From an uncultured Ectothiorhodospiraceae bacterium (lineage in GTDB: Bacteria > Pseudomonadota > Gammaproteobacteria > S012-40), in the NCBI GenBank assembly GCA_945787715.1, contig CALZJE010000008.1, positions 24,367-88,366 on the forward strand: a stretch of DNA of 64,000 nucleotides. The letters run 5' to 3'. Shown here one piece after another: positions 2,615 through 44,168 of the stretch; position 1 is the stretch's first letter, and every line of letters starts with the position of its first letter. The notes under the pieces are model-generated. The model was not told the DNA's origin. It did not search any database and saw only the letters and a list, made by a program, of their open reading frames with translations. The translations under genes were made by a program, and so were the position numbers.

Positions 2615-2629
2615 CTGCTTACCTATTTT

Positions 2630-3910: not shown

Positions 3911-3925
3911 ATTACAACCCTTCTA

Positions 3926-8194: not shown

Positions 8195-8638
8195 ATGATT
8201 AATATACACAAAGAAAATTCTCAAGAATTATACGAAGATAATTTCTTGCGTATTCGTACACTATTGCCTGACTTACAAATATTTGAACACGTGACTTTAT
8301 CAAGCGAAGATCACTACGTTCAGCTATGTGTTGATGTGTTAGAGCGTACGCCGTATACAATGCTTCTCAGTTTTTCATCACGTTATGGTGCGCAATATCA
8401 GCATGTGCCGGAAACGAAAATTCAAGTCAGGATGTATTATGATGCGGAGGTGGCTGAAGTGTTAACCGTGCAGGGTCATCGTCATATTAGACCTCATTAT
8501 AAATATCCTAACACAAGGATGTATGTTCCTGATGAGAAAAAACAGGGCAATCATTTACTCACTGAAATGTTGCTTTTCTGTGTTAAGAATAATTATAAAA
8601 AATCCTACCTGGATCAGCCCATCGTTATGAACAATTAA
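8195..8638 (+). CDS. DUF1249 (YqiB-like) protein
   Basis: The motifs LRIRTLLPDL, VRMYYDAEVAEV and YKYPNTRMYVPDEKKQ resemble YqiB family blocks. Start taken at the first ATG (M6 of the track ORF, which begins at a TTG). Confidence 0.5.
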   Translation: MINIHKENSQELYEDNFLRIRTLLPDLQIFEHVTLSSEDHYVQLCVDVLERTPYTMLLSFSSRYGAQYQHVPETKIQVRMYYDAEVAEVLTVQGHRHIRPHYKYPNTRMYVPDEKKQGNHLLTEMLLFCVKNNYKKSYLDQPIVMNN

Positions 8639-9089
8639 TTGTTATTCAAACAATTAACCACCTCTAGTTGTGATCTTTTTAGTAATAATATCGTCGTACT
8701 GATTCCTTAGCTTCTTATATGTAAATATCCATTGGACACACACGCCTGTGTCGCCTATAGCATGTACTATTGGTGTTTTTGGTTGATAGTTCCAGATGCA
8801 ATCTAACGTTTATATCAGTATAAACGTACCTGCGCGCATCTTAAGGTTGGACCGTGTTATAAACATTTTACGTTTAATTATATTGGATAATCTCTAATTT
8901 CTGTCGGTATCCTCCTTAATACTGAGATTTGATTGGTACAAAGAAAGATCATCAGTTGGCTGTATAGATGTTTCACTTTGTATTGTGAATGATTTCACGT
9001 TTTTTCTGTTGTGCGTTCTAAAATAAGATATAGGAGGGACGTAAAAGGTTGTAAGTAACAGTGTTACGAAACTTGTAATCGGGAGAATA

Positions 9090-10445: not shown

Positions 10446-11852
10446 TTGATGGCAGGAAAAACATTATACGACAAGTTATGGGATTCTCATGTTGTGCGGA
10501 AAGAGGAAGATGGGACAACATTATTATATATCGACCGTCAACTTGTCCACGAAGTGACTTCTCCCCAGGCATTTGAAGGATTACGTATCGCAAATAGAAA
10601 GCCGTGGCGAAAAAGCGCTAATTTAGCCACTGCGGATCATAATGTTCCTACTACAGGATTAGATAAGGGCATTACTGATCCGGTGGCGAAAATCCAGGTG
10701 GAGACGCTTTCCAAGAATTGTAAAAGCTTTGATATTCAAGAGTTTGGTATGGGAGATGTGCGTCAGGGTATTGTTCATGTCATGGGCCCGGAGCAAGGTG
10801 CGACGCTTCCTGGAATGACGGTAGTTTGTGGTGATTCACATACCTCAACTCACGGTGCTTTTGGGGCATTGGCGCATGGAATTGGAACATCAGAAGTTGA
10901 ACATGTTTTGGCCACTCAATGCCTGATTCAGAAAAAATCCAAAAACATGCTAATTGAAGTCAATGGAGAGCTTAATCCAGGAGTGAGCGCCAAGGATGTT
11001 GTGTTGGCTATTATTGGAAAAGTTGGTACAGCAGGTGGAACAGGATATGCCATTGAATTTGGCGGCTCGGCAATTCGGTCTTTGAGTGTAGAAGGGCGTA
11101 TGACAGTGTGTAATATGGCTATAGAAGCTGGTGCACGCTCGGGAATTATCGCAGTGGATGATAAGACTATTGAGTATTTTAAAGATCGCCCCTTTTCACC
11201 TAAAGGTAGTGATTGGGCGAAAGCTGTTGACGCATGGATAGAGCTGCATAGTGATGTTGGTGCACATTTTGATCAAGTGATTAAAATGGATGCGAGCGAG
11301 ATTCAACCACAAGTTACTTGGGGTACATCGCCTGAAATGGTGGTAGATATTAATGCTTCGGTTCCTGATCCTGATAAAGAATCTGATCCTGTGAAAAAAG
11401 AGGGCATGAAAGCGGCGCTTGTCTATATGGGATTGGAAGCAAATACACCAATTTCTGAAATTGCAGTAGATAAGGTGTTCATTGGTTCATGCACAAACTC
11501 GCGTATTGAAGATTTGCGTGCTGCTGCAGAAGTGGCGAATGGCCGGAAAGTAGCAAAGAACATAAAATTGGCGATGGTTGTCCCTGGTTCTGGTTTAGTG
11601 AAAACGCAAGCTGAACAGGAGGGTTTGGATCAAATATTTATCAAGGCAGGTTTTGAATGGCGTGCTCCAGGTTGTTCAATGTGTTTAGCAATGAATGCGG
11701 ATCGATTGGAGCCAAAAGAACGTTGTGCCTCAACCTCAAATCGCAACTTCGAGGGGCGTCAGGGTAATGGTGGGCGCACCCATTTGGTAAGCCCTGCAAT
11801 GGCTGCTGCAGCAGCTGTCAATGGTCATTTTATTAACGTAAACGATTTATAA
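10446..11852 (+). CDS. leuC: 3-isopropylmalate dehydratase large subunit
   Basis: 468 aa. Aconitase-family motifs ([15 protein letters not shown]; [13 protein letters not shown]). Confidence 0.95.
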
Positions 11853-11864
11853 GGAGGGTTAAAC

Positions 11865-12506
11865 ATGAAAGCATTCAATACATTAAATGGAATTGTCGCT
11901 CCTTTGGATCGCGCAAACGTTGATACTGACGCAATTATTCCCAAACAGTTTCTAAAGTCAATAAAACGGTCAGGATTTGGGCCTAATCTATTTGACGAAT
12001 GGCGTTATCTGGATGAAGGTCAGCCAGATGCAGATAATTCTAAACGTCCTATCAACAAAGATTTCATTTTGAATCAAGATCGTTATCAAGGTGCCAGTAT
12101 TTTAATCGCACGGGATAATTTCGGTTGTGGCTCAAGCCGTGAACATGCGCCCTGGGCACTGGAAGATTATGGTTTTCGTGTGATTATCGCGCCAAGTTTT
12201 GCTGATATCTTCTTTAATAATTGCTTTAAAAACGGCTTGTTGCCGATTGTTTTGGCAGAAAGCACAGTTGATGAGTTATTCACTGAAGTGGATGTTAATG
12301 AAGGATATAAATTGACAGTTAATTTGCAAGAGCAAGTCATTGAAAAGCCAAATGGCAACTCAATCGCCTTTGAGGTAGATCCATTTCGTAAGCATTGCCT
12401 GATAAATGGATTAGATGATATTGGATTAACGCTACATCATGTGGAAGATATCAGGAGCTATGAGGAAAAGCGTAAGAAAGAGGCGCCTTGGTTATTCTCT
12501 TCCTAA
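11865..12506 (+). CDS. leuD: 3-isopropylmalate dehydratase small subunit
   Basis: 213 aa with the aconitase swivel domain ([16 protein letters not shown]). Starts 13 nt after leuC. Confidence 0.95.
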
Positions 12507-12681
12507 TTATTATAATCTCTTATAATTAGTGAATTTAATTTCTCGAATAGGAAAAACTTTTCCTATTCGAGTGCCATATTTTTCCCCCACATTCTGATAA
12601 AATATCAGGTCTATTGTGTATTTATAATTTGTGTTTAAAAATTCGGTAAGTCAGACACAATAAAAACGACAGGAAACAACA

Positions 12682-13839
12682 ATGACGAAAAAAATTGCGG
12701 TTCTTCCAGGTGACGGAATTGGGCCAGAAATAGTTGCGGAAGCAGTAAAAGTATTGGAATGCCTAAAGCGCGATTATGGTTTCAGCTTTGAGATTGAAGA
12801 GGGATTGATTGGCGGCGCTGCTATTGATGAAACTGGCGGCCCCTTACCCGAAAGTACACTAAAATTAAGTAAAGATGCGGATGCGATAATTCTTGGCGCT
12901 GTCGGTGGTTACAAATGGGAGTCACTCGATATTTCCATTCGTCCAGAAAAAGGATTGCTAGGTTTGCGATCTGAATTAAGCCTTTTTTCAAATCTTCGTC
13001 CTGCAATTTTATATCCTCAGCTTGCTGCGGCATCAACGTTAAAACCTGAAGTGGTTTCTGGATTGGATTTAATGATTGTTCGCGAACTCACAGGTGGTAT
13101 TTATTTTGGTCAGCCTCGCGGTGTAAGAACGTTAGATAATGGGGAAAAACAAGGCTATAACACGCTTATCTATAAAGAGTCAGAAATAGAACGAATTGGT
13201 CGTTCAGCATTTGAAATAGCACAAAAACGAAATAGAAAGCTTTGTTCAGTGGATAAAGCCAATGTACTTGAGTGTACAGAGCTTTGGCGTGAAACGATGA
13301 CCGAGCTTAGCAAAGAATATCCAGATGTTGAGTTGAGTCACATGTATGTGGACAATGCTGCAATGCAGTTAGTACGAGCTCCCAAGCAGTTTGACGTTAT
13401 GGTCACAACCAACATGTTTGGTGATATTTTGTCGGATTGTGCCGCTATGTTGACAGGTTCAATTGGAATGTTGCCATCTGCGTCTCTTAATGCGCAGAAT
13501 CAGGGAATGTATGAGCCTATCCATGGATCTGCTCCTGATATAGCTGGTAAGGGAATTGCTAATCCAATTGCAACCATTTTATCTGTCTCAATGATGCTGC
13601 GTTATTCGTTAGATGAGCCAGGCCTTGCAGATAATATCGACAAAGCAGTTAATGACGTGTTAGATAAAAACTTGCGCACAGCAGATATATACACGGAAGG
13701 TTCAAAAAAAGTTGCAACCGAAGAGATGGGTGATGCTATTGTTGCTGCGATGAAGAAAAACATGTGGGATTCTGCTGGTGGCATAGGCAACCCCGAAGAG
13801 TGCGCGCGAAGTGGCGGAATGAGCAACGACGAATATTAA
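12682..13839 (+). CDS. leuB: 3-isopropylmalate dehydrogenase (with an apparent C-terminal extension of about 25-30 aa)
   Basis: The IGPEIV and NMFGDILSD motifs place it in the isocitrate/isopropylmalate dehydrogenase family. 385 aa is longer than the usual 355-365 aa. Confidence 0.9.
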
Positions 13840-13853
13840 GGGAAAAAAACTCA

Positions 13854-14879
13854 ATGAGTAAAAAATATAATGTAGCTGTCGTTGGCGCGACGGGCGCAGT
13901 TGGCGAAACAATAATCTCCATATTGGAGGAAAGAAAATTTCCTGTCGATAAATTATACCTGCTCGCCAGTGAACGTTCGGCAGGTAAAAGAATTCAATTT
14001 AATGGTAAGCATATTGTGGTTCATAATTTGGCTGATTTCGATTTTAGCCAAGTTCAAATAGGCCTATTTTCGGCCGGAGGAAGTATTTCAAAGGAATATG
14101 CGCCGAAAGCCGCAGCAGCTGGCTGTGTGGTAATTGATAACACATCTGAGTTTCGTTACGACGATGATGTTCCTTTGGTGGTTCCTGAAGTAAATTCACA
14201 CGCAATTGCTCAGTACAAAAACCGAAATATTATTGCCAACCCAAACTGTTCAACCATTCAAATGCTTGTGGCTCTGAAGCCAATTTACGATGCGGTCGGA
14301 ATATTGCGTATCAATGTCGCAACATATCAAGCAGTCTCGGGGACTGGCAAAGAAGCGATTGAAGAGCTTGCAGGTCAAACAGCTGCGCTTTTGAATATGA
14401 AGGATATCAAAACCGAAGTATATCCCAAGCAAATTGCTTTTAATGTCTTGCCTCAAATTGATATGTTTATGGATAACGGTTATACGCGTGAAGAGATGAA
14501 GATGGTTTGGGAAACCTGCAAGATATTTGAAGACCCTGATATTCAGGTGAATCCAACAGCAGTTCGTGTTCCTGTTTTCTATAGTCATTCAGAAGCTATA
14601 CATATAGAAACCAAAGAGAAAATCACAACCCTAATGGCACGAGATTTACTTGAAAATGCACCGGGAGTTTCTTTGTTGGATGAACGCAAGGATGGTGGTT
14701 ACCCAACTGCTGTAACAGAATCAGCAGGCAAAGATCCCGTTTGGGTAGGTCGAATACGGGAAGATATCTCTCACCCAAAAGGCTTGAATTTATGGGTAGT
14801 GGCGGATAATGTGAGAAAAGGTGCAGCACTTAATAGTGTGCAAATTGCCGAAGTACTTATCGAAAAACATCTGTCGTAA
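13854..14879 (+). CDS. asd: Aspartate-semialdehyde dehydrogenase (short, about 340 aa type)
   Basis: VAVVGATGAVG Rossmann motif, then NCSTIQ catalytic Cys region. Start chosen at the ATG at 13854 (MSKKYNV...) rather than the upstream-extended track ORF that overlaps leuB. Confidence 0.85.
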   Translation: MSKKYNVAVVGATGAVGETIISILEERKFPVDKLYLLASERSAGKRIQFNGKHIVVHNLADFDFSQVQIGLFSAGGSISKEYAPKAAAAGCVVIDNTSEFRYDDDVPLVVPEVNSHAIAQYKNRNIIANPNCSTIQMLVALKPIYDAVGILRINVATYQAVSGTGKEAIEELAGQTAALLNMKDIKTEVYPKQIAFNVLPQIDMFMDNGYTREEMKMVWETCKIFEDPDIQVNPTAVRVPVFYSHSEAIHIETKEKITTLMARDLLENAPGVSLLDERKDGGYPTAVTESAGKDPVWVGRIREDISHPKGLNLWVVADNVRKGAALNSVQIAEVLIEKHLS

Positions 14880-15274
14880 ATAATGTGTGGAATTAGGGGG
14901 TGATCTAATCATCCCCCTCAATGTTAAAGAGTGCACTGTGAGCTATTCAGAGTTTTAAAAGCGGTAGATGATTACAAGTTGAATATTTGGAAGCTCATTT
15001 TATACTCTGCTATTGTGGCTTTCCCTTTCAACAGGTTTTCTACAATAAATAGTGTTCGAAATTAATTGCAGCGCCAACATGAGTCGTATTTTTATGTAAA
15101 TATATTAATAACATTTTGATTGCTTTTAAATCATCGATTGTAACAATAGATCTATTTGTATGATTACCGCACAAATTGCAAAGCTCGTTATTATTACATC
15201 GTAAGTTCTAAATAAATTAATAAGAACGCTCGATAATAATGAAGAATCAATTACTTGAATGAGTTTTAACTATC

Positions 15275-18112
15275 ATGAAGTGGCAGAATATCGCTCATAA
15301 CATAAAAACAATAAAAATTAGCGCGATTTTCGTCTTGCTACTTTTCCTTTTCTTTTCTTCAAACTCATTCGCATTGGGTATTGGTGGTATTAAATTAAGT
15401 TCTACACTTGATAAACCTCTTGATGCAAATATTGAATTACTTGATGTTAGTTCTGACGAATTGTCAGAAATTGGAGTTAAGCTAGCGCCAAATGCAATTT
15501 ACGAACGAATGGGAATTCAGCGTAGTGCGCTTGTTAATCAGCTTATATTTACCATTCAAGAGCAAGATGACGGCAAACATGTCATCCACATCTCTACTCA
15601 AGGCCCTGTTACTGAACCGTTTCTTAATTTTCTCATTGAAGTTAATTGGCGTAATGGACGTTTGTTGCGTGAATTTACCGTTCTTTTAGATCCCCCCATT
15701 TGGCTAGAAGAACAAGCATCACTAGTTACCGCACCAGAAACTGAATTACCTCCAACCTTTAGTGAGAGAACTCAGATCGAAGAAGAGCCTGAAACTGTGC
15801 CGCCGCTGGTTGAAGTCTCTCCCATTGACGAAATGGAAGAATTTGAGTCCTCTGCACCCAAGAAGACAATTCCTGCAAGCGACGTTGCTCCGGTATCAGA
15901 TAGTGCAGATACTCAGGGTGTCGCAGATTTGTCATCGATGGTGCATACCGTACAAAAAAATGAATATCTGTGGAAAATTGCGAACGAAATGCGACCGCAA
16001 AATATCAGTGTGGATCAGATGATGCTCGCCCTGCAAAGAGCAAATTCGGAAGCGTTTTTTGGGGATACTGTTTCTCAATTGAAGACTGGCGCAATTTTAC
16101 GAATCGATAATGTCGCTTCACTTAATAGTATTAGTGTTTCTGATGCGATTGCTGAAATTGCACGACAAAACCAGAAGTGGTTAGCTTATAAGCGAGATCG
16201 TCAGGCAAGAAATGCAGTATCTGCTGAATCAGCAGAAATTGAAATCACCAATGGTGAGCAAACAAATAGTTCGGTTGAGGAAAGTCTTGTATCAGTACTA
16301 GCGGAAGAAACTTCGTTACTGAAACTTGTGTCTCCCATAAACGAGCAAAGTGATTTAAGTGAAGCCACGCAAACCAATGCCACACAAACCAATGCCACTC
16401 TGGAAGCCGGTGAATCCTCACTTGAAAACTTAAGCGTTGAATTGGCTATGGCATCAGAAGATATGGAAGCTAAACGGCTTGAGAATGAAGATTTAAAAGA
16501 TCGACTATCTTCTCTTCAAGATCAAATGAGTAAAGCGAAAAATCTGATTGAGTTAAAAGATAATGAGCTGAAACAATTTGAGACCGGTGTCGAAGATGAA
16601 GTAATTTCTCAAATTCTACCTTCCGTAGAACTTAATGAACAAACTGATATAGCATCTGAGAATATTCCACCCGTCAAAGCCAATACAGATGAGGTGGATC
16701 AAAAGAAATCGAAAGCTGAATATTGGAAAGATCCTGTCATACTTGGAACTACTGCAGGCGCTGCACTACTATTGCTTCTTACCATTATTGTTGTTAAACG
16801 CAAGCGAAAAGAGAATCAGGTAGAACAAGAACCTGAAGCCATTGATCATGAAGATGCTTCGTTAGAAGAGTTGTTTGCAGAGTCTGAAGGATCCAATAAT
16901 GATACACAGGTTATCAAGTTTAATGATAGTTTTTTGGGAGAAGAAGAATCAGACATTTCACTTGAGCCATTGACTGAACTTAATTTTGATACAAATGAAA
17001 ACGAGCTACTTGAAAGTAGAGAGCCGTTTCTTGATCCGATCGCTGAAGCCGATGTTTATTTAACCTATGAGAAGTATGGCAAAGCTGAATTGTTGTTAAA
17101 TGATGCCATACAATCAGAACCCGACCGCCAGGAGCTAAAACTTAAGTTACTTGAAGTGCACGCGCTTTCTCATAATGTTGGTGCTTTTAATAATGCTGCA
17201 GATATCTTATATGCATCTATTTCAGGTGACGATCAGCATCCTATTTGGCAACAAGCAATTTCACTAGCGATGGATATTGGGTCTGAAAGTCCTCTATTTG
17301 CCAAAAGTGAAGCGAACGTAGCTGAATTAATAGATAAAGAAATACAAAAAGAGAATGTAGATCTTCCCTTTGGAGATGAAGAAATTCTCGCCGGAAAAGA
17401 CAATGATGCACCATCATTTGATGCGAATTCTCCAGGAAAAACTTCTGATATAAAAGAGAATTTCTCGGTTGCTGACAATAGGTTTGACGAATTACTGGAT
17501 AGTGAATTGTTTGAGAGTTTCTCGGCTAACTCTGATGAACTCAAGGCTGCTGAGCTAGAGAAGCTAAATCTCGATTCATCAGAGTCTATTACGGAAGTAC
17601 TGGAATTTACAGATTTTGATGAGATACAAACTGAAAATGAATCCGAAGTTAGCAATATATTATCAGAACGGGAAGACGTTAATGATGTAGAACCAAAAAG
17701 CATACTCTCGATTAATGAATTAGGGCTAGATTATGATGAAGATCTGGAGTTAAAACCAGAAAAGGTGACCGGAAACGGAAATAAAGAGGCTTACAAAATT
17801 GTCGAAAAAAATATTGCTGACATTACAGAAATCGATACATATGAACTCCCTGATGATGAGCAATCAATTACAGTAGACGATGTATTTGATCCGGTAAGCC
17901 ATCCAATTTCTGCCGGATTAACAAATGAAAAAGAGTTTACAGACACATCCTTGTTCTTACTCTCTGATGAAGTAGGGACTAAGCTGGATCTGGCTAAAGC
18001 TTATATGGAGATGGGTGATTATGATGGAGCAAAAGATCTGCTCTCTGAAGTTATGGGAGAAGGAAATAGCAAGCAACAAGCGGAAGCTATGGAGTTACTC
18101 GAAACCACTTAA
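15275..18112 (+). CDS. fimV: FimV-like peptidoglycan-binding membrane protein
   Basis: Conserved FimV N-terminal domain, LysM (VHTVQKNEYLWKIANEM), a central TM helix (ILGTTAGAALLLLLTIIVVKRKRK), a long acidic region, and the FimV C-terminal motif (DLAKAYMEMGDYDGAKDLLSEVMGEG). Position after asd matches Pseudomonas/Legionella synteny. Confidence 0.8.
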   Translation: MKWQNIAHNIKTIKISAIFVLLLFLFFSSNSFALGIGGIKLSSTLDKPLDANIELLDVSSDELSEIGVKLAPNAIYERMGIQRSALVNQLIFTIQEQDDGKHVIHISTQGPVTEPFLNFLIEVNWRNGRLLREFTVLLDPPIWLEEQASLVTAPETELPPTFSERTQIEEEPETVPPLVEVSPIDEMEEFESSAPKKTIPASDVAPVSDSADTQGVADLSSMVHTVQKNEYLWKIANEMRPQNISVDQMMLALQRANSEAFFGDTVSQLKTGAILRIDNVASLNSISVSDAIAEIARQNQKWLAYKRDRQARNAVSAESAEIEITNGEQTNSSVEESLVSVLAEETSLLKLVSPINEQSDLSEATQTNATQTNATLEAGESSLENLSVELAMASEDMEAKRLENEDLKDRLSSLQDQMSKAKNLIELKDNELKQFETGVEDEVISQILPSVELNEQTDIASENIPPVKANTDEVDQKKSKAEYWKDPVILGTTAGAALLLLLTIIVVKRKRKENQVEQEPEAIDHEDASLEELFAESEGSNNDTQVIKFNDSFLGEEESDISLEPLTELNFDTNENELLESREPFLDPIAEADVYLTYEKYGKAELLLNDAIQSEPDRQELKLKLLEVHALSHNVGAFNNAADILYASISGDDQHPIWQQAISLAMDIGSESPLFAKSEANVAELIDKEIQKENVDLPFGDEEILAGKDNDAPSFDANSPGKTSDIKENFSVADNRFDELLDSELFESFSANSDELKAAELEKLNLDSSESITEVLEFTDFDEIQTENESEVSNILSEREDVNDVEPKSILSINELGLDYDEDLELKPEKVTGNGNKEAYKIVEKNIADITEIDTYELPDDEQSITVDDVFDPVSHPISAGLTNEKEFTDTSLFLLSDEVGTKLDLAKAYMEMGDYDGAKDLLSEVMGEGNSKQQAEAMELLETT

Positions 18113-18345
18113 TTTCCAATTTAAAAACAGACGTGCAGAACCTCTGATATTTATTACCCTAGTGATGAATGAATACAGAGGTTTTTTTTATGTTCACTGA
18201 CAGGGTAGCCTGCTAGGCCTAATCTAGGCGTAATGCTATCAAAAACATACTAAGCGGATAATTAGCCATTGAATTAGGCTGTACATTTGTGAGTTAGGAT
18301 ATAGAATAACGCCCAATAATTTATGTATTTCACAGGACTGTATAT

Positions 18346-19743
18346 ATGACAATCAAGACTCGCTTTGCCCCCAGCCCAACAGGGTATTTGCATGTGGGTG
18401 GTGCTCGCACGGCGTTATTTTCATGGTTACACGCACGTAAGCATGGTGGTAAATTTGTTTTGCGAATCGAAGATACAGATAGAGAGCGCTCAACACAAGA
18501 GTCTGTTAACGCTATTCTGGAAGGGATGACGTGGCTTGGGCTCGATTATGATGAAGGGCCGTTTTATCAAACTGAACATTTTGAGCGTTATGATGAGATC
18601 ATTGAACAGCTACTCAAAGAAGAGAAGGCCTACCATTGTTATTGCAGTAAAGATGAGCTTGAAGCAATGCGCGAAGCTCAAATGGCGAATAAAGAGAAAC
18701 CTCGTTATGACGGCCGATGCAGACATCGAACTGAACCTAAGGAAGGGATTGCTCCTGTCATCCGGTTTAAGAATCCGTTAGAAGGTAGTGTTGTTGTAAA
18801 AGATCTTATACGAGGTGAAGTGACATTTAATAATAAAGAGTTGGATGATTTAATCATAGCTCGATCAGATGGCACGCCAACTTACAATCTCACCGTTGTT
18901 GTTGATGACATGGATATGGGGGTCAACTGCGTAATTCGTGGAGATGATCATTTAAATAACTCTCCTCGTCAGATTAATATATTAAATGCTCTCAATGCAG
19001 AGGCCCCGCAATATGCGCACGTACCCATGATTTTGGGGGATGATGGCAAGCGTCTTTCAAAACGGCATGGTGCTGTGAGTGTTATGCAATATAAAGAAGA
19101 GGGATTTTTACCTGAAGCTTTATTGAATTACCTAGTAAGACTCGGTTGGTCTTATGGGGATAAAGAAATTTTCTCAATTGATGAGATGATTGAATTTTTT
19201 AAAACTGAAGATGTTAATAAAGCTGCATCTAGCTTCAATACTGAAAAGTTGTTGTGGATAAATCAAGAGTATATTAAAAGCTCTTCGCCCGAACATATTG
19301 CACGCCATTTATCTTCACACTTAGCTGATGTAGCTGTGGACCCCACAATAGGTCCTGATATCCATCGCGTAATTTCGATTCACCAAGAACGTGTTAAAAC
19401 CTTAGTTGAGTTAGCGCAAAGTATCGTCTATTTTTATAAAGATTTTGACGAATTTGATGTGAAAGCTGCGAAGAAGAATTTTAAAGATGCCGCTTTGATT
19501 CCTCTGGAGAGGTTGCTTGCAGAATATAGTCAGCTGGAAATTTGGAAAGCTGAAGATATTCATAAAGTCGTTACCTCTGTGTCAGAGCAGCTGGATTTAA
19601 AAATGGGGAAAGTAGCTCAACCGTTGCGCGTTGCAATAACGGGTGGTGCAGTTTCTCCCTCCATTGATATTACCGCGGAACTCATCGGAAGAGACAGAGT
19701 CCTTGAACGCATATCTAAAGCAATAATGTATATTAAAGAGTAA
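18346..19743 (+). CDS. gltX: Glutamate--tRNA ligase
   Basis: Class I aaRS motifs: HIGH-type [19 protein letters not shown] and KMSKS-type KRLSKR. 465 aa. Confidence 0.95.
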
Positions 19744-19950
19744 CTCTGGAAGCTAGTGTTATCTGAATATAAATATATAGTCGGATAGTCTTGATCGCTA
19801 TTTTATGCTCATTGCCGTCAATTTATAATCAAAGTCTTACTGTTATGAGGTCGCTGGAGAATTAGGCTGATCCATGAAAAATATTCTAAAATAGTATAAA
19901 TATTTTCTTGACGATATAACTCTCTATCCGTAGAATGCGCAACTCCTTTC

Positions 19951-20026
19951 GGGGCTATAGCTCAGCTGGGAGAGCGCTACACTGGCAGTGTAGAGGTCGG
20001 CGGTTCGATCCCGCCTAGCTCCACCA
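19951..20026 (+). tRNA. tRNA-Ala (anticodon GGC)
   Basis: 76 nt. GGGGCTATAGCTCAGCTGGGAGAGCG...CCACCA with the anticodon loop CTGGCAG. Cloverleaf is readable by eye. Confidence 0.85.
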
Positions 20027-20073
20027 GGGTTTAAAGTAAATAGCACCGACTGCAAGATTTGAAGGTTAATTAT

Positions 20074-20149
20074 GTCCCCTTCGTCTAGTGGCCTAGGACA
20101 CCGCCCTTTCACGGCGGTAACAGGGGTTCGAGTCCCCTAGGGGACGCCA
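20074..20149 (+). tRNA. tRNA-Glu (anticodon TTC), copy 1
   Basis: GTCCCCTTCGTCTAGTGGCCTAGGACACCGCCCTTTCACGGCGG...GGGGACGCCA. Near-identical to E. coli tRNA-Glu. Confidence 0.9.
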
Positions 20150-20158
20150 CTATTCTAA

Positions 20159-20186
20159 GGCTTAGCTAAGGCTAAGCCTTTTTTAA
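20159..20186 (+). terminator. Rho-independent terminator after tRNA-Glu copy 1
   Basis: GGCTTAGCTAAGGCTAAGCC followed by TTTTTT. Confidence 0.6.
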
Positions 20187-20306
20187 TGACCAAGTTTACT
20201 TGGTGTTAATAAAAGTAATACCGAATAAGTAGTAATCTCGTACATTATTTGTTCGCAAGGTAAGCAGTAAAATATTTGTAGTACACTGAGAATTGAAGGT
20301 TTATAT

Positions 20307-20382
20307 GTCCCCTTCGTCTAGTGGCCTAGGACACCGCCCTTTCACGGCGGTAACAGGGGTTCGAGTCCCCTAGGGGACGCCA
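20307..20382 (+). tRNA. tRNA-Glu (anticodon TTC), copy 2
   Basis: Identical 76-nt sequence to copy 1. The leader is also duplicated (GAAGGTTnAnnATGTCCCC). Confidence 0.9.
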
Positions 20383-20391
20383 TACAAATCA

Positions 20392-20421
20392 AAGGTTTAG
20401 AAGAGATTCTAAACCTTTTTT
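20392..20421 (+). terminator. Rho-independent terminator after tRNA-Glu copy 2
   Basis: AGGTTTAG-aagagatt-CTAAACCT followed by TTTTTTTT. Confidence 0.6.
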
Positions 20422-20600
20422 TTATGCACCTAAATCCATAATTAGCCATTTCGCAGCACAGATTTAGCACATCTAGCCAACCTTTAAACAGGGCATTGCG
20501 CTCATCGCTAATTATTATTTCTTAACACCCGATATAATATATAACGATTATCGTCATATGTTGCATTGCGTTATATAATGGGTAGCGTTATAGTTCGATA

Positions 20601-20882
20601 ATGTTAAGGTCTTTTAAATCAAGGGAAACAGAGAAAATCTGGAATGGCGATGTTTCCCGAAAATTGCCAACGGACATCCAGCAAATTGCACGTCGGAAGT
20701 TGCGCATGCTTAATAATGCAATCGAATTGAAAGATCTAAGAATTCCCCCCGCCAATCGCTTGGAAGCATTGAAAGGGGAAAGGAAAGGTCAATACAGCAT
20801 CCGGATTAATCAGCAGTGGCGAATATGTTTTAATTGGAAAAATGGTGATGTTCTGGATGTTGAAATTGTAGATTATCATTGA
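20601..20882 (+). CDS. higB: HigB-type toxin (RelE/ParE superfamily, 'plasmid maintenance system killer')
   Basis: 93 aa. Motifs KIWNGDVSRKLP...RLEALKGERKGQYSIRINQQWRICF are typical of HigB. TATAAT-like box and short repeats lie upstream. Confidence 0.8.
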   Translation: MLRSFKSRETEKIWNGDVSRKLPTDIQQIARRKLRMLNNAIELKDLRIPPANRLEALKGERKGQYSIRINQQWRICFNWKNGDVLDVEIVDYH

Positions 20883-20891
20883 GGATTAAAT

Positions 20892-21185
20892 ATGAAAAAA
20901 CTCGAAAATATTCATCCAGGCGAAATACTGCTAGAAGAGTTCCTTATCCCAATGGAAATTAGTCAAAACCGACTTGCTCGGGAAATTAGTGTGCCTCCAC
21001 GTAGAATTAATGAGATTGTTCTTGGAAAAAGAGGGGTCACAGCAGATACCGCTTTACGCCTAGCGCGTTATTTTGGAACAACCGAAAAATTTTGGTTAGG
21101 ACTGCAAGATGACTATGATTTAGAGGAGGCAAGGATTGTGTTAGGCTCCGTTTTGGATAAGGAAATTAAGCCACATGCTGCTTAA
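20892..21185 (+). CDS. higA: HigA-type antitoxin (XRE-family HTH)
   Basis: 97 aa. HPGEILLEEFL...ISQNRLAREISVPPRRINEIVLGKRGVTADTALRLARYFGTTEKFW is the canonical HigA HTH. Starts 9 nt after higB. Confidence 0.8.
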   Translation: MKKLENIHPGEILLEEFLIPMEISQNRLAREISVPPRRINEIVLGKRGVTADTALRLARYFGTTEKFWLGLQDDYDLEEARIVLGSVLDKEIKPHAA

Positions 21186-21271
21186 GCCTCTGGAGTAAGC
21201 ATAAGTATTGATTAAACAATCGCTTAAATCTTAATCTTTCTTTAGTGTTTCATAACAGGATAATAGTCACT

Positions 21272-21293
21272 TCCCCTAGGGGACGCTACTATT
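21272..21293 (+). repeat. Partial 3'-end copy of tRNA-Glu (att-like direct repeat)
   Basis: TCCCCTAGGGGACGCTACTATT matches the last 18 nt of tRNA-Glu copy 1 plus 4 nt of its 3' flank (20132..20153, TCCCCTAGGGGACGCCACTATT) at 21 of 22 positions. Confidence 0.6.
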
Positions 21294-21389
21294 TAAAAAA
21301 CTCTGTTAGATTACTAGCTGAGTTTTTTTTCGCCTGCCAATTTATTTTCTGTTAGAAATAATATTCAATTTAAGGATTAGAAGTAATCT

Positions 21390-21878
21390 TTAATCCCTGA
21401 CCAGCCGCACAAACCACTCAGCTTGCTTATTGCTTAAATAGCTTTCCCCATGTAGGAAAAATACTATCATGGCATGGTATTTTGATGTGGAGTCTTCAGT
21501 TATGGTCCAGAACCCGGTAGATACTGTATTTGGAAATTTAGATTGATTTATTGCGGGTTGAAAACAACGTTTCTCGGTAATGCTTTCCAGTTCTTTCAGC
21601 GTTGGTAAACGCCAATTTTTTTTGCCGGCAAAGCCTTCATAATTATTAAAATAATTAGCGGCGAGAATTGCTTTTTGCCATTCCATTCGTTTGCTTTGCC
21701 CTATGCACATGGAATTTTCCCAAGTCATTCCATATGCACATTTCATCCAGGTTAGGCTTGTTTTTTCATCAAATATTGTTCCGTTACCGATATCTTTATA
21801 GTTTGTGTTTTCTGGAATACATTCCGCATTCAGGTTGGCTGTAATTAAGCTCAGGGATAAAACAATAAAGCGTATCAT
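21390..21878 (-). CDS. Secreted DUF1566 (Lcl C-terminal domain-like) protein
   Basis: N-terminal signal peptide (MIRFIVLSLSLITANLNA). WRLPTLKELESI motif is characteristic of DUF1566. Confidence 0.55.
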   Translation of the reverse strand: MIRFIVLSLSLITANLNAECIPENTNYKDIGNGTIFDEKTSLTWMKCAYGMTWENSMCIGQSKRMEWQKAILAANYFNNYEGFAGKKNWRLPTLKELESITEKRCFQPAINQSKFPNTVSTGFWTITEDSTSKYHAMIVFFLHGESYLSNKQAEWFVRLVRD

Positions 21879-22355
21879 GATAGTGCCGCCTAATTATTAT
21901 TACTTGAGTTTCCATTTTATAACTGAGCGTTTGTTATGTCTATGGTATCCAATTTGAAATTTCTACAACAATTTTCACTGTTAAGTTTGAATAACTGAAG
22001 ATATTTACGATTTTCTCATCAGATTAATTGGAATAGGTATTGCAGAAATGAGATGTGAAATATGTACCATTTTAAATTATCTCATCTATTAATCATCCAA
22101 TTTATATTTCCTTGAAATTTATTTTATCTGAGCTCCGTTACTTCCGTTACTACTATATATGGCTGAATAAATTTTGAGAGAAGTAAGAAATATTGTCTGA
22201 TCACCTTTTTTACGCTGGGCTTCATCTACTATACTTGCATTGACATTATCGAGAACTCTATTTTCCATTGTAAATGAAATTCAAATTTTTCTCTTGCCAT
22301 TGTCTTTCCGTTGAGTAATGATTCAATCAAATAACCAAGTAAAAGAGTAAATATT

Positions 22356-22820
22356 ATGTTGCAAGTAAATACCACCGCTCCCAACTTTACCTTACCCAGT
22401 CAAACAGGAGAAAATATTTCTCTTGATGACTATAAAGGTAATAAAAATGTGGTGCTCTATTTTTATCCAAAAGACGATACATCAGGCTGCACTCTTGAAG
22501 CTCAGCAATTCAGTGCATTGATTGACGCATTTGCCGCTGTGGAAACTGTTGTTATTGGTGTAAGCAAAGACTCCTGTGATAGTCACCAGAGTTTTATCAA
22601 TAAATATGGTCTGAAAGTTGAGTTGATCTCCGATACCGATGGTCAGCTCTGTGAAAAATACGGGGTATGGCAGGAAAAAGAGAAAAATGGCGTTAAAAAA
22701 ATGGGTATCGTCCGCTCTACTTTTATCATCGACAAGAAATGTAATTTGGTTGATGTAGAGTATGGAGTCACTGCCGATGGTCATGCGCAGGCGGTGTTGG
22801 ATAAAGTTAAGTCACTGTAG
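22356..22820 (+). CDS. bcp: Thiol peroxidase Bcp (peroxiredoxin Q/BCP family)
   Basis: 154 aa. YFYPKDDTSGCTLEA active-site motif. Confidence 0.9.
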   Translation: MLQVNTTAPNFTLPSQTGENISLDDYKGNKNVVLYFYPKDDTSGCTLEAQQFSALIDAFAAVETVVIGVSKDSCDSHQSFINKYGLKVELISDTDGQLCEKYGVWQEKEKNGVKKMGIVRSTFIIDKKCNLVDVEYGVTADGHAQAVLDKVKSL

Positions 22821-23057
22821 TAAACAGGTGATAGCGAGCTGAGTTCGAAAATTCATCTTCTGCCCTAGTGAGCCATGCCTATTATGAAATTTATTTGCGT
22901 AGAAACTGCCAATGCCGCTGATGATGTGGTTGAAGTTCCGGCCGGCAGTGAATGAAAGTCGCTTAGTGGCAACTTGCTTGAGATTGGGTCACTTGAGATT
23001 GGGTTCCTTGAGATTACTCAACGACTCTTTGAATTAAATGTCCCAGCTTTTTGAATC

Positions 23058-24644
23058 CTACCTTTCACTCAACTTCCCAAACTTAGCGGGAGGTTTACGA
23101 TGAAGAGTCGCTTGCTCATATGCATATGCATATTGAAAAAGTTTTCCTTCAAAAAAAGGTTTCCCCAAAAATTGCAGTCCAGTGGGTAATCCATCTGATG
23201 TGAATCCCATGGGTACTGTGATAGCGGGTTGGCCTGTGTGTGGTGCAATCTTGGGGCTGTTGTTGCCATGCGGTGATTCATCGTCGCCAATATTTCTTGG
23301 TGGGTTTGACCAGGAGGGGTAGATGATTGCATCAATACGTTGATCTTGCATGGCTTGCATTACAGCGTCTTTTAATACCTTTCTTCTTGGATCGTTTTCC
23401 ACATCAACGCAAGGTGGTTCTTGTCGGTCTGGGGTGGTGTCTACATTCATCGCCCACAACATGGCGCCGTTGATTTTTTCATTAAACAATTTTTTGTCAT
23501 AGACTTCCTTGAGATTTTTTACTGGGGCTTTGTCACCTAATGTTTTTAAATATTCATCGATGTCGTATCTAAAGCGACTACAGAACCCGGTTGCTTTTGA
23601 GAGCTTTTCAAAATTTGGAACGGTAAAGTTATCGATAATTATTGCACCTTGATTTGATAGGTCTTCGATAGCTGATTCCATCAATACGATTGTTTCAGGA
23701 TCTGCGTCGTCTGACATGAATAATTCTCGCATAACGCCAAGACGAGCATTGATAAGTCCACGTTTATCCAGATAACGATGGTAGCTTTTCTCAATTTTAC
23801 CTTTGGATGCTTCTGTTCCTGGATCAGCTCGATCATATCCCGCAATCACTTCAAATACTCTTGCAGTATCTTTTACATTGCGCATCATTGGCCCAGCGAC
23901 ATCGCGATTATAGAGGAGTGGTATGACACCATCGCGACTAATTGCCCCAATAGTTGCTCGTATGCCCACTAAAGAGAGATGGGAAGCTGGGCCGCGAATA
24001 GAGTTGCCGGTATCGGTTCCCATACCGATAATGCCATAGTTAGCTGCGACGGCAGATGCAGTTCCACCGCTGGAACCCGCGGGTACGCGATTTTGATTGT
24101 AGGCGTTTCGTGTTTCACCGTGAGTGGAGCTGATGGTTTTATATGGGCTGAATGCCCACTCGGCCATATTGGATTTTGCTACGATTATTGCTCCCGCTTC
24201 GCGCAATTTTTTTACTACAAATGCATCATCAGGAGGAATGGAATCTTTTAGTGCAATGGAGCCAGCCTCGGTCGGCATATCTGCGGTATCAAAGTTGTCC
24301 TTTAATATAATCGGTATGCAATGTAGTTTTCTCAACTTGCCGGTTTGTTGATACTCTTTATCAAGCTCTCGTGCTTTAAATTTGGACTTACGATTAATTT
24401 CGGTGATGGCGTTGAGTTTGTTGTAGTGCTCATAAGTTAGGATGCGCTCGATATAGCGCTCAACGAGTTGAAAACAGGTGATTTGGTTAGAAATTATCCC
24501 ATTATGAACATCATCAATAGTAGCTTCAATGATAGTAAAATCATCACTAAGTTTTTTGGGGAATAGTCCGCAGCCACTAATAAGTTGAATACATAATGCA
24601 ACAATTATAATGCGACAAATAATATAAAGCATTTGATCCTTCAA
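23058..24644 (-). CDS. Amidase-signature family amidase, predicted lipoprotein
   Basis: GGSSGGTASAVAANYGIIGMGTDTGNSIRGPAS amidase signature. N-terminal lipobox LISGC. Confidence 0.8.
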   Translation of the reverse strand: MKDQMLYIICRIIIVALCIQLISGCGLFPKKLSDDFTIIEATIDDVHNGIISNQITCFQLVERYIERILTYEHYNKLNAITEINRKSKFKARELDKEYQQTGKLRKLHCIPIILKDNFDTADMPTEAGSIALKDSIPPDDAFVVKKLREAGAIIVAKSNMAEWAFSPYKTISSTHGETRNAYNQNRVPAGSSGGTASAVAANYGIIGMGTDTGNSIRGPASHLSLVGIRATIGAISRDGVIPLLYNRDVAGPMMRNVKDTARVFEVIAGYDRADPGTEASKGKIEKSYHRYLDKRGLINARLGVMRELFMSDDADPETIVLMESAIEDLSNQGAIIIDNFTVPNFEKLSKATGFCSRFRYDIDEYLKTLGDKAPVKNLKEVYDKKLFNEKINGAMLWAMNVDTTPDRQEPPCVDVENDPRRKVLKDAVMQAMQDQRIDAIIYPSWSNPPRNIGDDESPHGNNSPKIAPHTGQPAITVPMGFTSDGLPTGLQFLGKPFFEGKLFQYAYAYEQATLHRKPPAKFGKLSER

Positions 24645-24785
24645 ATAGAATTATTTTTGGAAAATGAAAAAGCTTATTTTATTGTTGTTATATGAATACG
24701 CTATTTATGATTAGCTGTTTTAATTAGAACCAGAGAGTCTAATGCTATCATGTGACATTGCAAGCCTTTTGAGTGGATTTTATTC

Positions 24786-25088
24786 TTATTTCGGGTCAAT
24801 ATTGGATGGAGGAATAATTTTTTCGCTTTTCCCATTGAGTTGAAACACGAATGAGAGCACGACGGCAACAGCCTGATAGAGATTGGAGGGAATTTCTTCA
24901 TCAATTTCGATTCGTGAAAGTAATTTAACTAGCTCGCTATCTTGATAGAGCGTAACGCCATGCTCTTCTGCTATCTCAACGATTTTTTCTGCAATAATGC
25001 CGTCACCTTTTGCGACTACCTTGGGCGCGTTTTCAATATTGTATTTTAACGCGACAGCTTGAAGATTTTTTTTATCATCGTCGCTCAT
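24786..25088 (-). CDS. FlhB C-terminal domain-like small protein (EscU/YscU/FlhB-C family paralogue)
   Basis: 100 aa. AVALKYNIENAPKVVAKGDGIIAEKIVEIAEEHGVTLYQDSELVKLL aligns with the FlhB cytoplasmic C-terminal domain. Overlaps the upstream gene by 4 nt. Confidence 0.7.
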   Translation of the reverse strand: MSDDDKKNLQAVALKYNIENAPKVVAKGDGIIAEKIVEIAEEHGVTLYQDSELVKLLSRIEIDEEIPSNLYQAVAVVLSFVFQLNGKSEKIIPPSNIDPK

Positions 25089-26755
25089 GCTTTCAAATCC
25101 ACAAGATTACTAGAGTTAATTGTTTCATGGTTGTGAGAGAGAGGTGGTTTACCTTGGTGGCAAGCGATGTTTTCTGATTTAAATCCTGATTTTTGAAGGT
25201 TTTCTTGTAGCTTGTTAACATTTTGGCGGGTTATTTCATAGGTATCGTCTCTCTCAGCCCATAAAACCACGCCAATGTTTTCGCTAATCAAGGTGATTCG
25301 TGCATGTATAGGGCCGAGTGATTCCAGTTCAATCGCTAAATTTACCGTCACGACGGCATCAGCTTCCTGCTCAGTCGCTTGTTCTTTTTCGTAACGCATT
25401 TGTATGAGATGTATATCTTCACCATCTTGTGCTGGAATTTCCATGCTCCAGGCAAGTTTCCCATTATCTTGTTCTTGTAAGGTGTTGAGTTGATGAAGTT
25501 GAGTGCGGGAAATTGCGGAATCCACAGATTTAACAAGATTGTCAATCATATCTACCAGGCTTGATATGCGAGGTGTAACATTCGATTGTTTTGGATCTGT
25601 TTTAGTCGCAACAAAATCAAGTGCATGTTTAATATTACCGAATTCTTTATTGTAGGTAGGAACTGTTTTGCTAATTTGAGGCGTGTTTGTAATTGGCTGT
25701 TGAAGTAGTGATTGTACTAGTGGTTTTTGAGTAGTTACCTTAGTTAACTCTTTGGGAATTATTTTGTGCTGCTGGCTGATAACTTTTATTGCTTGCTGCG
25801 TTTGTTCAATCTTAATTTGTTGAGCAATGTTTTCAACAGATTTTGTTGTTGCTTGTGTAGTATTTATTGTTTTATTTTCAGAATTAGTTTTTATCTGTAA
25901 CGCCGCTTCTTGTTTTACTTGCTCTGTATTTTTAATAGTGTTGGTTTGTATTACTTGATTATCTAAAGGTGTTTTCGCTTGTGTATTTGAAATACTTGCT
26001 TTAATTAGAGGTTGTTGCGGGGGCAGTTTATTAGTCTGGGGCTGTTGCGTTAAACTGCTCTGAAGTTTTATTGTTTGTTGTGTCGAGCTGTTCTGTAATT
26101 TTGTTTCCTGTTGAATAGGGTTGTTTTGAAGTTTTGTTGTTTGCTGAGTTGTAGACTGTTCTTTACTCAATGCATTTTTAAAATTTATGAGTAACGACTT
26201 CAAATCTTTTTTAATTATCGAAGCTGTGTTATTTGTAATAATGTCCTTTAAGTTTTTTTCCAATAATAAACCTGAATTTTTAATGGCTGATTTGACGCCT
26301 TCAGCCGTTGATAACTGTTTGGTTGTTGGAAGTTGTTTTATAAAGCTCCTTGAAACTTGAACCAATTTTTGCGGTATTTGTAATGGTTTGGCGTGTTTGA
26401 TGACATTCTGGATCTGTTGAATAGCGAAACCAATCGGTTTTTGTTGAGGTAACGTTTGCCGCATCGCTTGCTCGGTCACTAGTGAGCTGATGAGCTTTTC
26501 GGGCAGTTGAAGTGTAATTTGTTTTCCGGTTTGAGCAACAAGGAGTTGCAATATTTGGTCGGTTTTCAGGGGCAGCGTCGTTTTTGCATTCAGTAGTGTG
26601 TTATTGATATTTAAAGTGACTTCGCCAGATGCTGAGTTAAGTGAAATGACTTTAGCGAGTAACTGCTGGCCTACGCTCAGGTTATTGGCAGGCATCTTCC
26701 CTGAAGAGACCGTGAGCGTTTGTAAGGCAGCGATTTGTGTTGGCGTGAGTTCCAT
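25085..26755 (-). CDS. FliK-like hook-length control protein homologue (Gln/Thr-rich and repetitive)
   Basis: 556 aa. Long Q/T-rich low-complexity middle with KLQ-type repeats. The C-terminal block (AWSMEIPAQDGEDIHLIQMRYEKEQ...VNLAIELESLGPIHARITL) resembles the FliK Flg_hook domain. Confidence 0.6.
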   Translation of the reverse strand: MELTPTQIAALQTLTVSSGKMPANNLSVGQQLLAKVISLNSASGEVTLNINNTLLNAKTTLPLKTDQILQLLVAQTGKQITLQLPEKLISSLVTEQAMRQTLPQQKPIGFAIQQIQNVIKHAKPLQIPQKLVQVSRSFIKQLPTTKQLSTAEGVKSAIKNSGLLLEKNLKDIITNNTASIIKKDLKSLLINFKNALSKEQSTTQQTTKLQNNPIQQETKLQNSSTQQTIKLQSSLTQQPQTNKLPPQQPLIKASISNTQAKTPLDNQVIQTNTIKNTEQVKQEAALQIKTNSENKTINTTQATTKSVENIAQQIKIEQTQQAIKVISQQHKIIPKELTKVTTQKPLVQSLLQQPITNTPQISKTVPTYNKEFGNIKHALDFVATKTDPKQSNVTPRISSLVDMIDNLVKSVDSAISRTQLHQLNTLQEQDNGKLAWSMEIPAQDGEDIHLIQMRYEKEQATEQEADAVVTVNLAIELESLGPIHARITLISENIGVVLWAERDDTYEITRQNVNKLQENLQKSGFKSENIACHQGKPPLSHNHETINSSNLVDLKA

Positions 26756-43761: not shown

Positions 43762-43836
43762 GCGGGAATAGCTCAGTGGTAGAGCACAACCTTGCCAAGG
43801 TTGGGGTCGCGAGTTCGAGCCTCGTTTCCCGCTCCA
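43762..43836 (+). tRNA. tRNA-Gly (anticodon GCC)
   Basis: GCGGGAATAGCTCAGTGGTAGAGCACAACCTTGCCAAGGTTG...TCCA. Same position as glyW in E. coli. Confidence 0.9.
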
Positions 43837-43947
43837 AATTCTAGAGCCTCGGCTGTACAGTCGGGGTTTTTTAATTCTTAAAGTATGACTGAATAAATAA
43901 CAAATGATTCTGTTATTGAAGATTCTGTTATTATAGTAACGAGCATT

Positions 43948-44021
43948 GGCTGGGTGGCAGAGTGGTGATGCAGCGGCCTGCAAAGCCGTCAACAGCGGTT
44001 CGATTCCGCTCCTAGCCTCCA
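43948..44021 (+). tRNA. tRNA-Cys (anticodon GCA)
   Basis: 74 nt. Anticodon loop CTGCAAA. Acceptor stem GGCTGGG/CCTAGCC with one G-U pair. Confidence 0.85.
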
Positions 44022-44081
44022 TACAATTTGTATGTTGTGATTCTGACGCTTGGCAGCGTAGAATGTTAAAGCCATACCCTA

Positions 44082-44168
44082 GCCCGGGTGGCGAAATTGG
44101 TAGACGCAAGGGACTTAAAATCCCTCGAGGGAAACCTCGTGCCGGTTCGATTCCGGCCCCGGGCACCA
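44082..44168 (+). tRNA. tRNA-Leu (anticodon TAA), with long variable arm
   Basis: 87 nt. GCCCGGGTGGCGAAATTGGTAGACGCAAGGGACTTAAAATCCC...CACCA. Confidence 0.9.

Follow-up and report, generated by a model that had tools for sequence, protein, structure and literature searches.

A toxin-antitoxin cassette inserted at the 3' end of a tRNA-Glu gene in an uncultured gammaproteobacterium

Chromosomal toxin-antitoxin (TA) loci are often described as small islets, the mobility of which is unknown. In staphylococci, pseudo-SCC (staphylococcal cassette chromosome) elements have no recombinase, lie between direct repeats where a conserved gene has its 3' end, stack in tandem and can be moved in trans by a recombinase from elsewhere. 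In the accretions formed by ICEs (integrative and conjugative elements) and by IMEs (integrative and mobilizable elements) of streptococci we find cis-mobilizable elements (CIMEs), which keep attL and attR, have no genes for integration or transfer and accrete in tandem at att sites; they are described as decay products of ICEs and IMEs, usually of several kb and with gene remnants (PMC5704250). The superintegron of Vibrio contains higBA cassettes, which are TA cassettes of a chromosomal integron (PMC13108822). Here we describe a stretch of 64,000 nt in a contig of an uncultured gammaproteobacterium (the window, to which all coordinates without a prefix refer), in which a higBA operon lies in a 906-bp cassette inserted at the 3' end of a tRNA-Glu(UUC) gene.

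The insertion is clearly apparent when the window is compared with its closest relative. A protein search with GltX detected two close relatives, with 94% and 92% identity. The first of them, JGI Ga0316204_10001040 (L090), has a synonymous divergence (dS) of 0.52 from the window in gltX. Both sequences have the order leuB-asd-fimV-gltX...tRNA-Ala-tRNA-Glu-tRNA-Glu-Lcl_C/DUF1566-bcp-amidase, and L090 has no higBA. In a BLAST comparison, positions 20383–21271 have no counterpart in L090, while L090 8893–8985 aligns with 21272–21368. The second tRNA-Glu gene of L090 (8834–8909) abuts CTATTTAAAAACTCTGTTAGTTTCGCTAACAGAGTTTTTTTTCG, the same bases which follow position 21288 in the window; the sequence directly 3' of this gene, CTATTTAAAAACTCTGTTAG..TTTTTTTTCG, is also the one found after 21288. 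The insert begins at the base which follows the CCA of tRNA-Glu copy 2, and its borders are exact (Table 1). None of the motifs specific for the cassette, including its conserved right end, is present in L090. An initial annotation of the window had proposed an insertion at the 3' end of tRNA-Glu with repeats similar to attL and attR, and the clean indel with respect to L090 bears this out; relatives with no indel at this place would have spoken against it, which is not what L090 shows. The empty site that it had predicted does exist, with two tRNA-Glu genes instead of the single one expected.

That annotation gave correct positions for the tRNA-Ala gene, the identical pair of tRNA-Glu genes, higB-higA and a repeat of 22 nt. 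The repeat (21272–21293) is identical in 21 of 22 positions to 20133–20154, at the end of copy 1. Out of 100 dinucleotide shuffles, not one reached the three matches observed in the window with at most three mismatches (mean expected 0.00). On this basis attL had been assigned to copy 1. In L090, however, both tRNA-Glu copies have CTATT as 3' flank; it is the native flank of both ancestral copies, and this is why five extra matching bases had suggested a pairing with copy 1. The true attL is in copy 2. The duplication of tRNA-Glu had also been considered part of the event, but the pair is already present in the empty site of L090. Furthermore, in a GltX search of species-representative genomes the best among the matches listed have 70% identity and belong to Methylophaga and Methylococcales; among these matches the order gltX, tRNA-Ala(GGC), tRNA-Glu(UUC) is common, and a tandem tRNA-Glu pair follows gltX-tRNA-Ala in at least eight loci of Methylococcales type. 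The pair is therefore old and does not belong to the inserted element.

The two copies share 79 identical nt, and their 16-nt leader is repeated with 88% identity (20055–20070 and 20289–20304). In L090 the counterpart of copy 1 is found at 8600–8675, followed by the same CTATTC..AAGGCTTAGC terminator, and the operon promoter sequence is also conserved. Each copy had been credited with a terminator of its own. Both hairpins are indeed present, but the one after copy 2 is part of the insert instead of the tRNA gene. The terminator native to this copy (21295–21328) has been displaced 906 bp downstream by the insertion. Its fold has −12.8 kcal/mol and an internal mismatch, as compared with −17.6 kcal/mol in L090 (8916–8948); constraint on it could have been relaxed after the cassette supplied its own terminator. 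An Rfam scan of the region detected nothing beyond the three tRNAs, and the composition of the islet has no anomaly (GC 0.39–0.42). A second assembly, GCA_945786995.1, has the same layout in contig CALZGR010000519.1 (L081), with 99.98% identity over 11982–26550 (14.6 kb), which demonstrates that the islet is not an assembly artefact. The gltX locus has another difference: an AraC-family regulator gene of about 960 bp lies between gltX and tRNA-Ala in the three closest relatives (7365–8324 in L090; also L091 and L092). It is missing at 19744–19800 of the window, where the alignment resumes at the last bases of that gene. This is a second indel, unrelated to the cassette.

Table 1. Position of the cassette, its parts and the neighbouring tRNA genes in the window
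Feature	Position	Strand	Remarks
Sigma-70-like promoter of the tRNA-Ala/tRNA-Glu operon	19908-19936	+	TTGACG-17-TAGAAT, 10/12 match; context only
tRNA-Ala(GGC)	19951-20026	+	ARAGORN; Rfam tRNA 64.9 bits
tRNA-Glu(UUC) copy 1	20074-20149	+	ARAGORN (TTC); Rfam 60.7 bits; ancestral, no part in the insertion
Intrinsic terminator of tRNA-Glu copy 1	20157-20186	+	Hairpin 20157-20180; fold -15.9 kcal/mol
tRNA-Glu(UUC) copy 2, target gene	20307-20382	+	ARAGORN; Rfam 60.7 bits; intact; orthologue of L090 8834-8909
Left 17-nt repeat (attL core)	20366-20382	+	TCCCCTAGGGGACGCCA; last 17 nt of tRNA-Glu copy 2
Inserted cassette, 906 bp	20383-21288	+	Absent from L090; equally 20366-21271 by the usual ambiguity
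Cassette-borne terminator	20391-20426	+	Hairpin 20391-20418; -13.9 kcal/mol, z -5.2; now ends tRNA-Glu copy 2
higBA promoter/operator region	20526-20600	+	TCGTCA-17-TATAAT at 20551-20579; overlapping TATAACG/CGTTATA palindromes
higB	20601-20882	+	93 aa; RelE-fold HigB-family toxin; PF05015 2.3e-22
higA	20892-21185	+	97 aa, helix-turn-helix antitoxin; HTH_3; TIGR02607 equivalog
Conserved right end of the cassette	21237-21271	+	TTTCTTT..ATAACAGGATAATAGTCACT; candidate binding arm for a recombinase
Right 17-nt repeat (attR core)	21272-21288	+	TCCCCTAGGGGACGCTA; 16/17 with respect to the tRNA 3' end
3' flank (CTATTT) and terminator, both native to copy 2	21289-21332	+	Directly 3' of copy 2 in L090 (8910-8952)

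The proteins of the cassette are ordinary; what is new is the vehicle. The toxin gene comes first, followed by higA on the same strand after a gap of 9 nt. HigB matches PF05015 over its full length with 79.7 bits (cut-off 27); its closest solved chain is 6f8s_B (3.6e-26), and the HigB chains 4mct and 4px8 are also matched. HigA has 110.3 bits with TIGR02607 (cut-off 47.7) and matches PDB 3trb_A (7e-25). To judge from these family assignments, HigB would be a ribosome-dependent mRNA endonuclease neutralised by HigA, an antitoxin and repressor. The palindromes which overlap the promoter-like site are conserved in the sister cassettes described below and are candidate operators for the antitoxin; the same motifs are found upstream of HigB in two other loci (L012 and L105). 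The ratio of nonsynonymous to synonymous divergence (dN/dS) of higBA with respect to the sister cassettes is about 0.03–0.05. Such a strong purifying selection suggests that both genes are functional.

HigB has many relatives, among which a tight group has 84–94% identity. We have found six further cassettes (HigB 84–90%), all six with higBA only; they measure 825–860 bp from repeat to repeat where both ends are intact. Five of the six have matching direct repeats derived from tRNA-Glu. They are found in different settings. In L082 and L104 gltX-tRNA-Ala-tRNA-Glu lies upstream; the host of L082 has 77% identity with the window in GltX and 45% in FimV, and L104 has MSHA pilus genes downstream. 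In L083 the upstream genes are araC-tRNA-Ala-tRNA-Glu. L086 has a degenerate left repeat without a tRNA body, and the cassette of L105 is part of a tandem array. L106 is a close relative of L104 in which the contig begins just upstream of higB and, at 745–800, the right repeat has decayed to TCCTTAAGAGGACGCAC. The terminator beyond it has been lost as well, which indicates that the right end is not needed by the host. A further setting is L084, with pgi-tRNA-Glu followed by a copy of the cassette: 801 nt from the first base of the tRNA are 100% identical in L083 (5753–6553) and L084 (2299–3099), with unrelated upstream flanks (araC-tRNA-Ala and pgi). This corresponds either to a very recent second insertion or to an assembly chimera at the tRNA.

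All cassettes follow a common plan: core, TAYAAATCAAAGGCTTAGC..GCTAGGCCTTTTTT terminator, variable spacer, promoter with palindromes, higB-higA, variable 3' untranslated region (UTR), TTCTTT..AAAACAGGATAATAGTnnCn and again the core. The mean pairwise identity across the five complete cassettes is 0.95 in the cores, 0.76 at the right end and 0.69 in the promoter/operator region, 0.61–0.63 at third codon positions and 0.41 in the 3' UTR. The terminator at the left end has 0.81, as compared with 0.30 for the adjoining spacer. Since both ends are more conserved than third codon positions, they are under selection. In the window the changes in the left-end stem are compensatory (GGC/GCC to GGT/ACC). 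For the conservation of the right end there is no apparent host function; an RNA hairpin is significant there in L086 and L083. The left end, TACAAATCAAAGG.., is unlike the native tRNA-Glu flanks of the window (CTATT..). Flanks which match it are those of L082, L104 and L083, and this suggests that the terminator is of foreign origin. A second type of junction in the family has GCCTGAGTACCCTTGGGNACGCCA plus a terminator. The dS between cassettes is about 1–2, so that the family is old.

The association with tRNA-Glu is confined to this closer clade and L012, since a HigB with 75% identity (P0021) has unrelated surroundings: it adjoins a MmeI-type enzyme, with no tRNA-Glu, in the 10 contigs checked. 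L012 (11561–12135) is a distant metagenome-assembled genome (MAG) of Acidihalobacter, with 67% identity in GltX. Its higBA (HigB 66%) starts 114 nt past a tRNA-Glu linked to gltX, has the same operator palindromes and is cut by the end of the contig inside higA. A BLAST search of the islet, which the initial annotation had suggested as a way to relate it to plasmids or phages, did not support such a relation: plasmids have only partial matches (67–78%) in the higBA coding sequence, with no match of the ends, and phages have none.

Different cargo is found in the tandem array, which is present in L105 (6788–8720) and in L107 (16150–18080). There, a 1007-bp vapBC cassette (VapB NF040493, VapC NF010285) and an 825-bp higBA cassette (HigB 84%) are placed head to tail. 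The three junctions of the array share 83–131 nt with 79–94% identity, formed by a 3' end similar to tRNA-Glu (TACCCTTGGGGACGCCA), CTATTC and a terminator. The same ends with different cargo are the mark of a cassette system. The array is found at the right-hand edge of a defence island, which comprises hsdR, McrBC, a gene similar to AbiC and a helicase similar to UvrD. We searched for a tRNA-Glu gene and an integrase around it, including an upstream extension of 9.4 kb, and found neither an integrase nor any tRNA in 21.5 kb.

As the initial annotation had noted, the window contains no integrase: PF00589 is absent from the 35 open reading frames (ORFs) of at least 180 aa which were either scanned or placed by synteny. 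The Pfam scan covered 32 of the 36 ORFs of this size; leuD, leuB and asd were placed by synteny, and 10446–11852, before leuD-leuB-asd, is presumably leuC. Integrases for this target, unrelated to the cassettes, are found in viruses. The exact 17-nt core is present in 21 viral contigs of IMG/VR (L109–L129), in 12 of them as partial 3' fragments of tRNA-Glu with 17 to about 50 nt. When the ORFs which adjoin these fragments were scanned, eight out of ten were tyrosine integrases (PF00589). Partial fragments of this kind, with a shared segment of 17–20 nt, are typical of attP; in L110 and L124 the block of identity is GAG plus 17 nt, equal in extent to the cassette core. Integrases which recombine in exactly that segment therefore exist. 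The tRNA-Glu(UUC) of this sequence is a frequent attachment site of phages.

The core has palindromic arms on either side of TA, TCCCC-TA-GGGGA. At the right end it is extended to GCTTCCCC-TA-GGGGAAGC in L083 (6639–6663) and to GCGTCCCC-TA-GGGGACGC in L086 (1837–1861), with arms of 8 bp in both. The right arm of L083 has a C-to-A change, which is matched by a T in its left arm; these positions are occupied by G and C in L086. Such a paired change would be expected in the site of a dimeric recombinase, an observation which is anecdotal with so few sequences.

We consider that 20383–21288 is probably a non-autonomous integrative cassette, mobilised in trans by an integrase specific for tRNA-Glu and retained by addiction. 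It has entered the second gene of the ancestral tRNA-Glu(UUC) pair, probably through recombination within the 17-nt segment. The tRNA has remained intact, its native flank and terminator have been shifted by the length of the cassette, and the terminator of the cassette has taken over. When the cassette circularises, its right end, the core and its left end would form an attP with the junction ..ATAACAGGATAATAGTCACT-TCCCCTAGGGGACGCYA-TACAAATCAAAGG..; the predicted attP is TTTCATAACAGGATAATAGTCACT-TCCCCTAGGGGACGCYA-TACAAATCAAAGGTTTAGAAGAG, and the predicted restored attB is GGTTCGAG-TCCCCTAGGGGACGCCA-CTATTTAAAAAACTCTG. Integration and excision would both be due to a tyrosine integrase acting in trans, the gene of which would lie elsewhere, in a phage or island with the same core. 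Loss of the cassette would free the stable toxin, which may explain its retention. Several observations weigh against this proposal. No cassette-bearing locus has an integrase, nor has the window, and neither a circular junction nor an excision product is visible in the assemblies. A cargo-blind scan of JGI metagenome contigs with the right-end motif ACAGGATAA-N8-TCCCCTAGGGGA detected only two loci, both already known, so that the family is small as sampled. The conservation of the left end can be accounted for by its function as a terminator alone, and the hairpin of the right end is unstable in the window copy (z −0.7). With the dS values given above, movement must be rare or old, and part of the distribution at gltX loci could be vertical. 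Finally, the case of L083 and L084 is possibly an assembly chimera at the tRNA.

The main rival to a cassette moved by an integrase is a spread without any recombinase, by homologous or homology-facilitated illegitimate recombination between tRNA-Glu loci or related genomes, which could, for instance, follow natural transformation. The tRNA-Glu gene, with its 76 nt, would be the left anchor, and the 17-nt repeat, together with a similar terminator where present, would provide microhomology at the right. This agrees with a tRNA-Glu gene which is identical across hosts, with the start of the L083/L084 identity at the first base of the tRNA and with the lack of integrases near the cassettes; in L082 and L104 the repeat even reaches about 37–55 nt through alike downstream terminators. 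We find it unlikely nevertheless: in the window the right crossover would have at most 17 nt of identity, with flanks that diverge immediately beyond, the 35 conserved nt to the left of the right core (0.76) would have no role, and L086 and the L105 array keep the design of the junctions without a tRNA anchor. Somewhat less likely still is that a larger island or prophage with an integrase entered tRNA-Glu and decayed until nothing but the islet was left, a CIME formed only once. The initial annotation took this position when it described the addiction module as all that remains. Such a process would be expected to leave what is seen here, with the tRNA intact, a TA module, a repeat of part of the tRNA and no integrase; CIMEs are defined exactly in this way (PMC5704250), and tRNA-Glu is a real site of phage integration. 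However, there are seven cassettes in different hosts and contexts with higBA alone, of 825–906 bp where both ends are intact, and one of them has a vapBC tandem partner. Their spacer has only 30–100 nt, they have no pseudogene remains and their conserved ends abut the operon; it is improbable that separate decays would all have ended in one and the same minimal unit. If a single decay took place long ago and its product then spread, this is compatible with a cassette mobilised in trans and is no rival to it.

It is improbable that higBA is an immobile TA locus, acquired in ancient times at gltX-tRNA-Glu and vertically inherited, which L090 would have lost in a precise deletion by slippage between the 17-nt repeats. 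In the window, L082 and L104 the cassette is indeed found at a tRNA-Glu linked to gltX, as is higBA in the distant L012, and between the window and L082 the proportion of synonymous differences (pS) is 0.60–0.70 in higBA as compared with 0.82 in gltX, a divergence nearly as deep as that of the hosts. On the other hand, the cassette terminator of the window is typical of the tRNA-Glu flanks of other lineages, L083, L084, L086 and L105 have settings without gltX or without any tRNA, and a conservation of the ends above the neutral level requires a function. The hairpin which starts 8 nt inside the left end (20391–20418), the palindrome at the right end (21262–21293) and insertion always in one orientation, immediately 3' of ..GACGCCA, recall the non-autonomous single-strand transposons of the IS200/IS605 family, similar to palindrome-associated transposable elements (PATEs), in which an HUH transposase acts in trans on subterminal hairpins and insertion would take place 3' of a short target at the end of the tRNA. 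This origin is very improbable, since the family neither makes nor needs direct repeats of 17 nt, the hairpin at the left is an intrinsic terminator with a T-run, the right one is weak in the window and no TnpA-like gene is found among the window ORFs scanned. Members of this family are expected to have subterminal hairpins, no repeats and a target of 4–5 nt. The cassette has a 17-nt direct repeat, and we do not include it among them.

A wider proposal can be made only tentatively. The higBA and vapBC units may represent an undescribed system of TA cassettes below 1 kb, with their own promoter and with junctions of about 80–130 nt formed by the 3' end of tRNA-Glu and a terminator, which would enter tRNA-Glu genes as well as the ends of one another and stack at the edges of defence islands. 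Such a system would be similar to an integron, run in trans by a tyrosine integrase specific for tRNA-Glu, with addiction as its sole payload. In the literature we have found no description of TA cassettes flanked by tRNA-Glu, although this does not prove that none exists. Our results suggest that a TA operon and about 100 nt of end sequence derived from a tRNA are enough to act as a mobile element, which borrows an integrase and is held by addiction. The locus is a clear case: its borders are exact, the site is empty in a close relative, the ends are conserved, sister copies lie beside different genes and two cassettes form an array. If true, it offers a concrete mechanism for the dispersal of TA modules through genomes and for their accumulation at tRNA genes and at the borders of defence islands, and it provides a natural cassette of very small size for integration at tRNA-Glu sites. 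If the spread was free of recombinase, it would be an example of tRNA genes as portable homology arms.

The rest of the window has other features. On the minus strand (1112–5848) we find the trio prkA-DUF444-spoVR, a conserved stress-related operon of ordinary appearance. A cluster of tRNA-Gly(GCC), tRNA-Cys and tRNA-Leu(UAA) follows pgsA at 43762–44168; no extra copies of their 3' ends are present in the window, which indicates that nothing has been inserted there. Two very large surface proteins are predicted at 34144–37896 and 46615–50610. One has 1250 aa with DUF5122 beta-propeller repeats; the other has 1331 aa with fn3 and leucine-rich repeats (LRR), and after it comes a gene for an autotransporter on the opposite strand (50684–52315). 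LRR proteins are uncommon in free-living Gammaproteobacteria, and this one may hint at an association with a host.

When compared with known systems, the cassette resembles the islands and prophages which enter tRNA genes with a tyrosine integrase: it is inserted at the 3' end of the tRNA, the gene is restored by sequence of the element, direct repeats of the tRNA 3' end flank it and the empty site is clean. It differs from them by the absence of an integrase, excisionase or other mobility gene, by its size of 0.8–0.9 kb and by the terminator which it provides for the tRNA. By definition, an element with att sites and no integrase may be classified as a CIME: attL and attR are retained without genes for integration or transfer, and the L105 array recalls tandem accretion. 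Here, however, we have a minimal and recurrent unit, with TA genes only and conserved ends, found in Gammaproteobacteria. Scans with the motifs and junctions in metagenome and viral contigs and in the flanks of L105 detected neither a parental ICE or IME nor a cognate integrase; in viral contigs neither the right-end motif nor the L105-type junction has a match. In its cargo the cassette does not differ from the HigBA/GraTA type II TA systems, with which it shares the toxin gene in first position, PF05015, the similarity to chain B of 6f8s, TIGR02607 and palindromes overlapping the promoter; there is nothing unusual in its proteins.

The TA cassettes of integrons are also smaller than 1 kb, with a TA operon under its own promoter, an imperfect terminal palindrome, stacking in arrays and a recombinase encoded elsewhere. 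In our case the recombination sequence is the 3' end of tRNA-Glu and the target is a tRNA gene. The junctions have the consensus GACGCYA/CTATTT (the slash marks the border). An integron cassette was considered and rejected: the boundaries are ..GACGCCA/TACAAAT and ..GACGCTA/CTATTT, with no GTTRRRY or attC, and the palindrome is TCCCCTAGGGGA, derived from the tRNA. As for a platform with intI and attI, no ORF of the integrase family is found among those scanned in the 64 kb of the window. Pseudo-SCC elements, finally, are also cassettes which lack a recombinase, are bounded by repeats and stack; they differ by their serine recombinase Ccr, their target rlmH, their size of kilobases to tens of kilobases and their different group of hosts.

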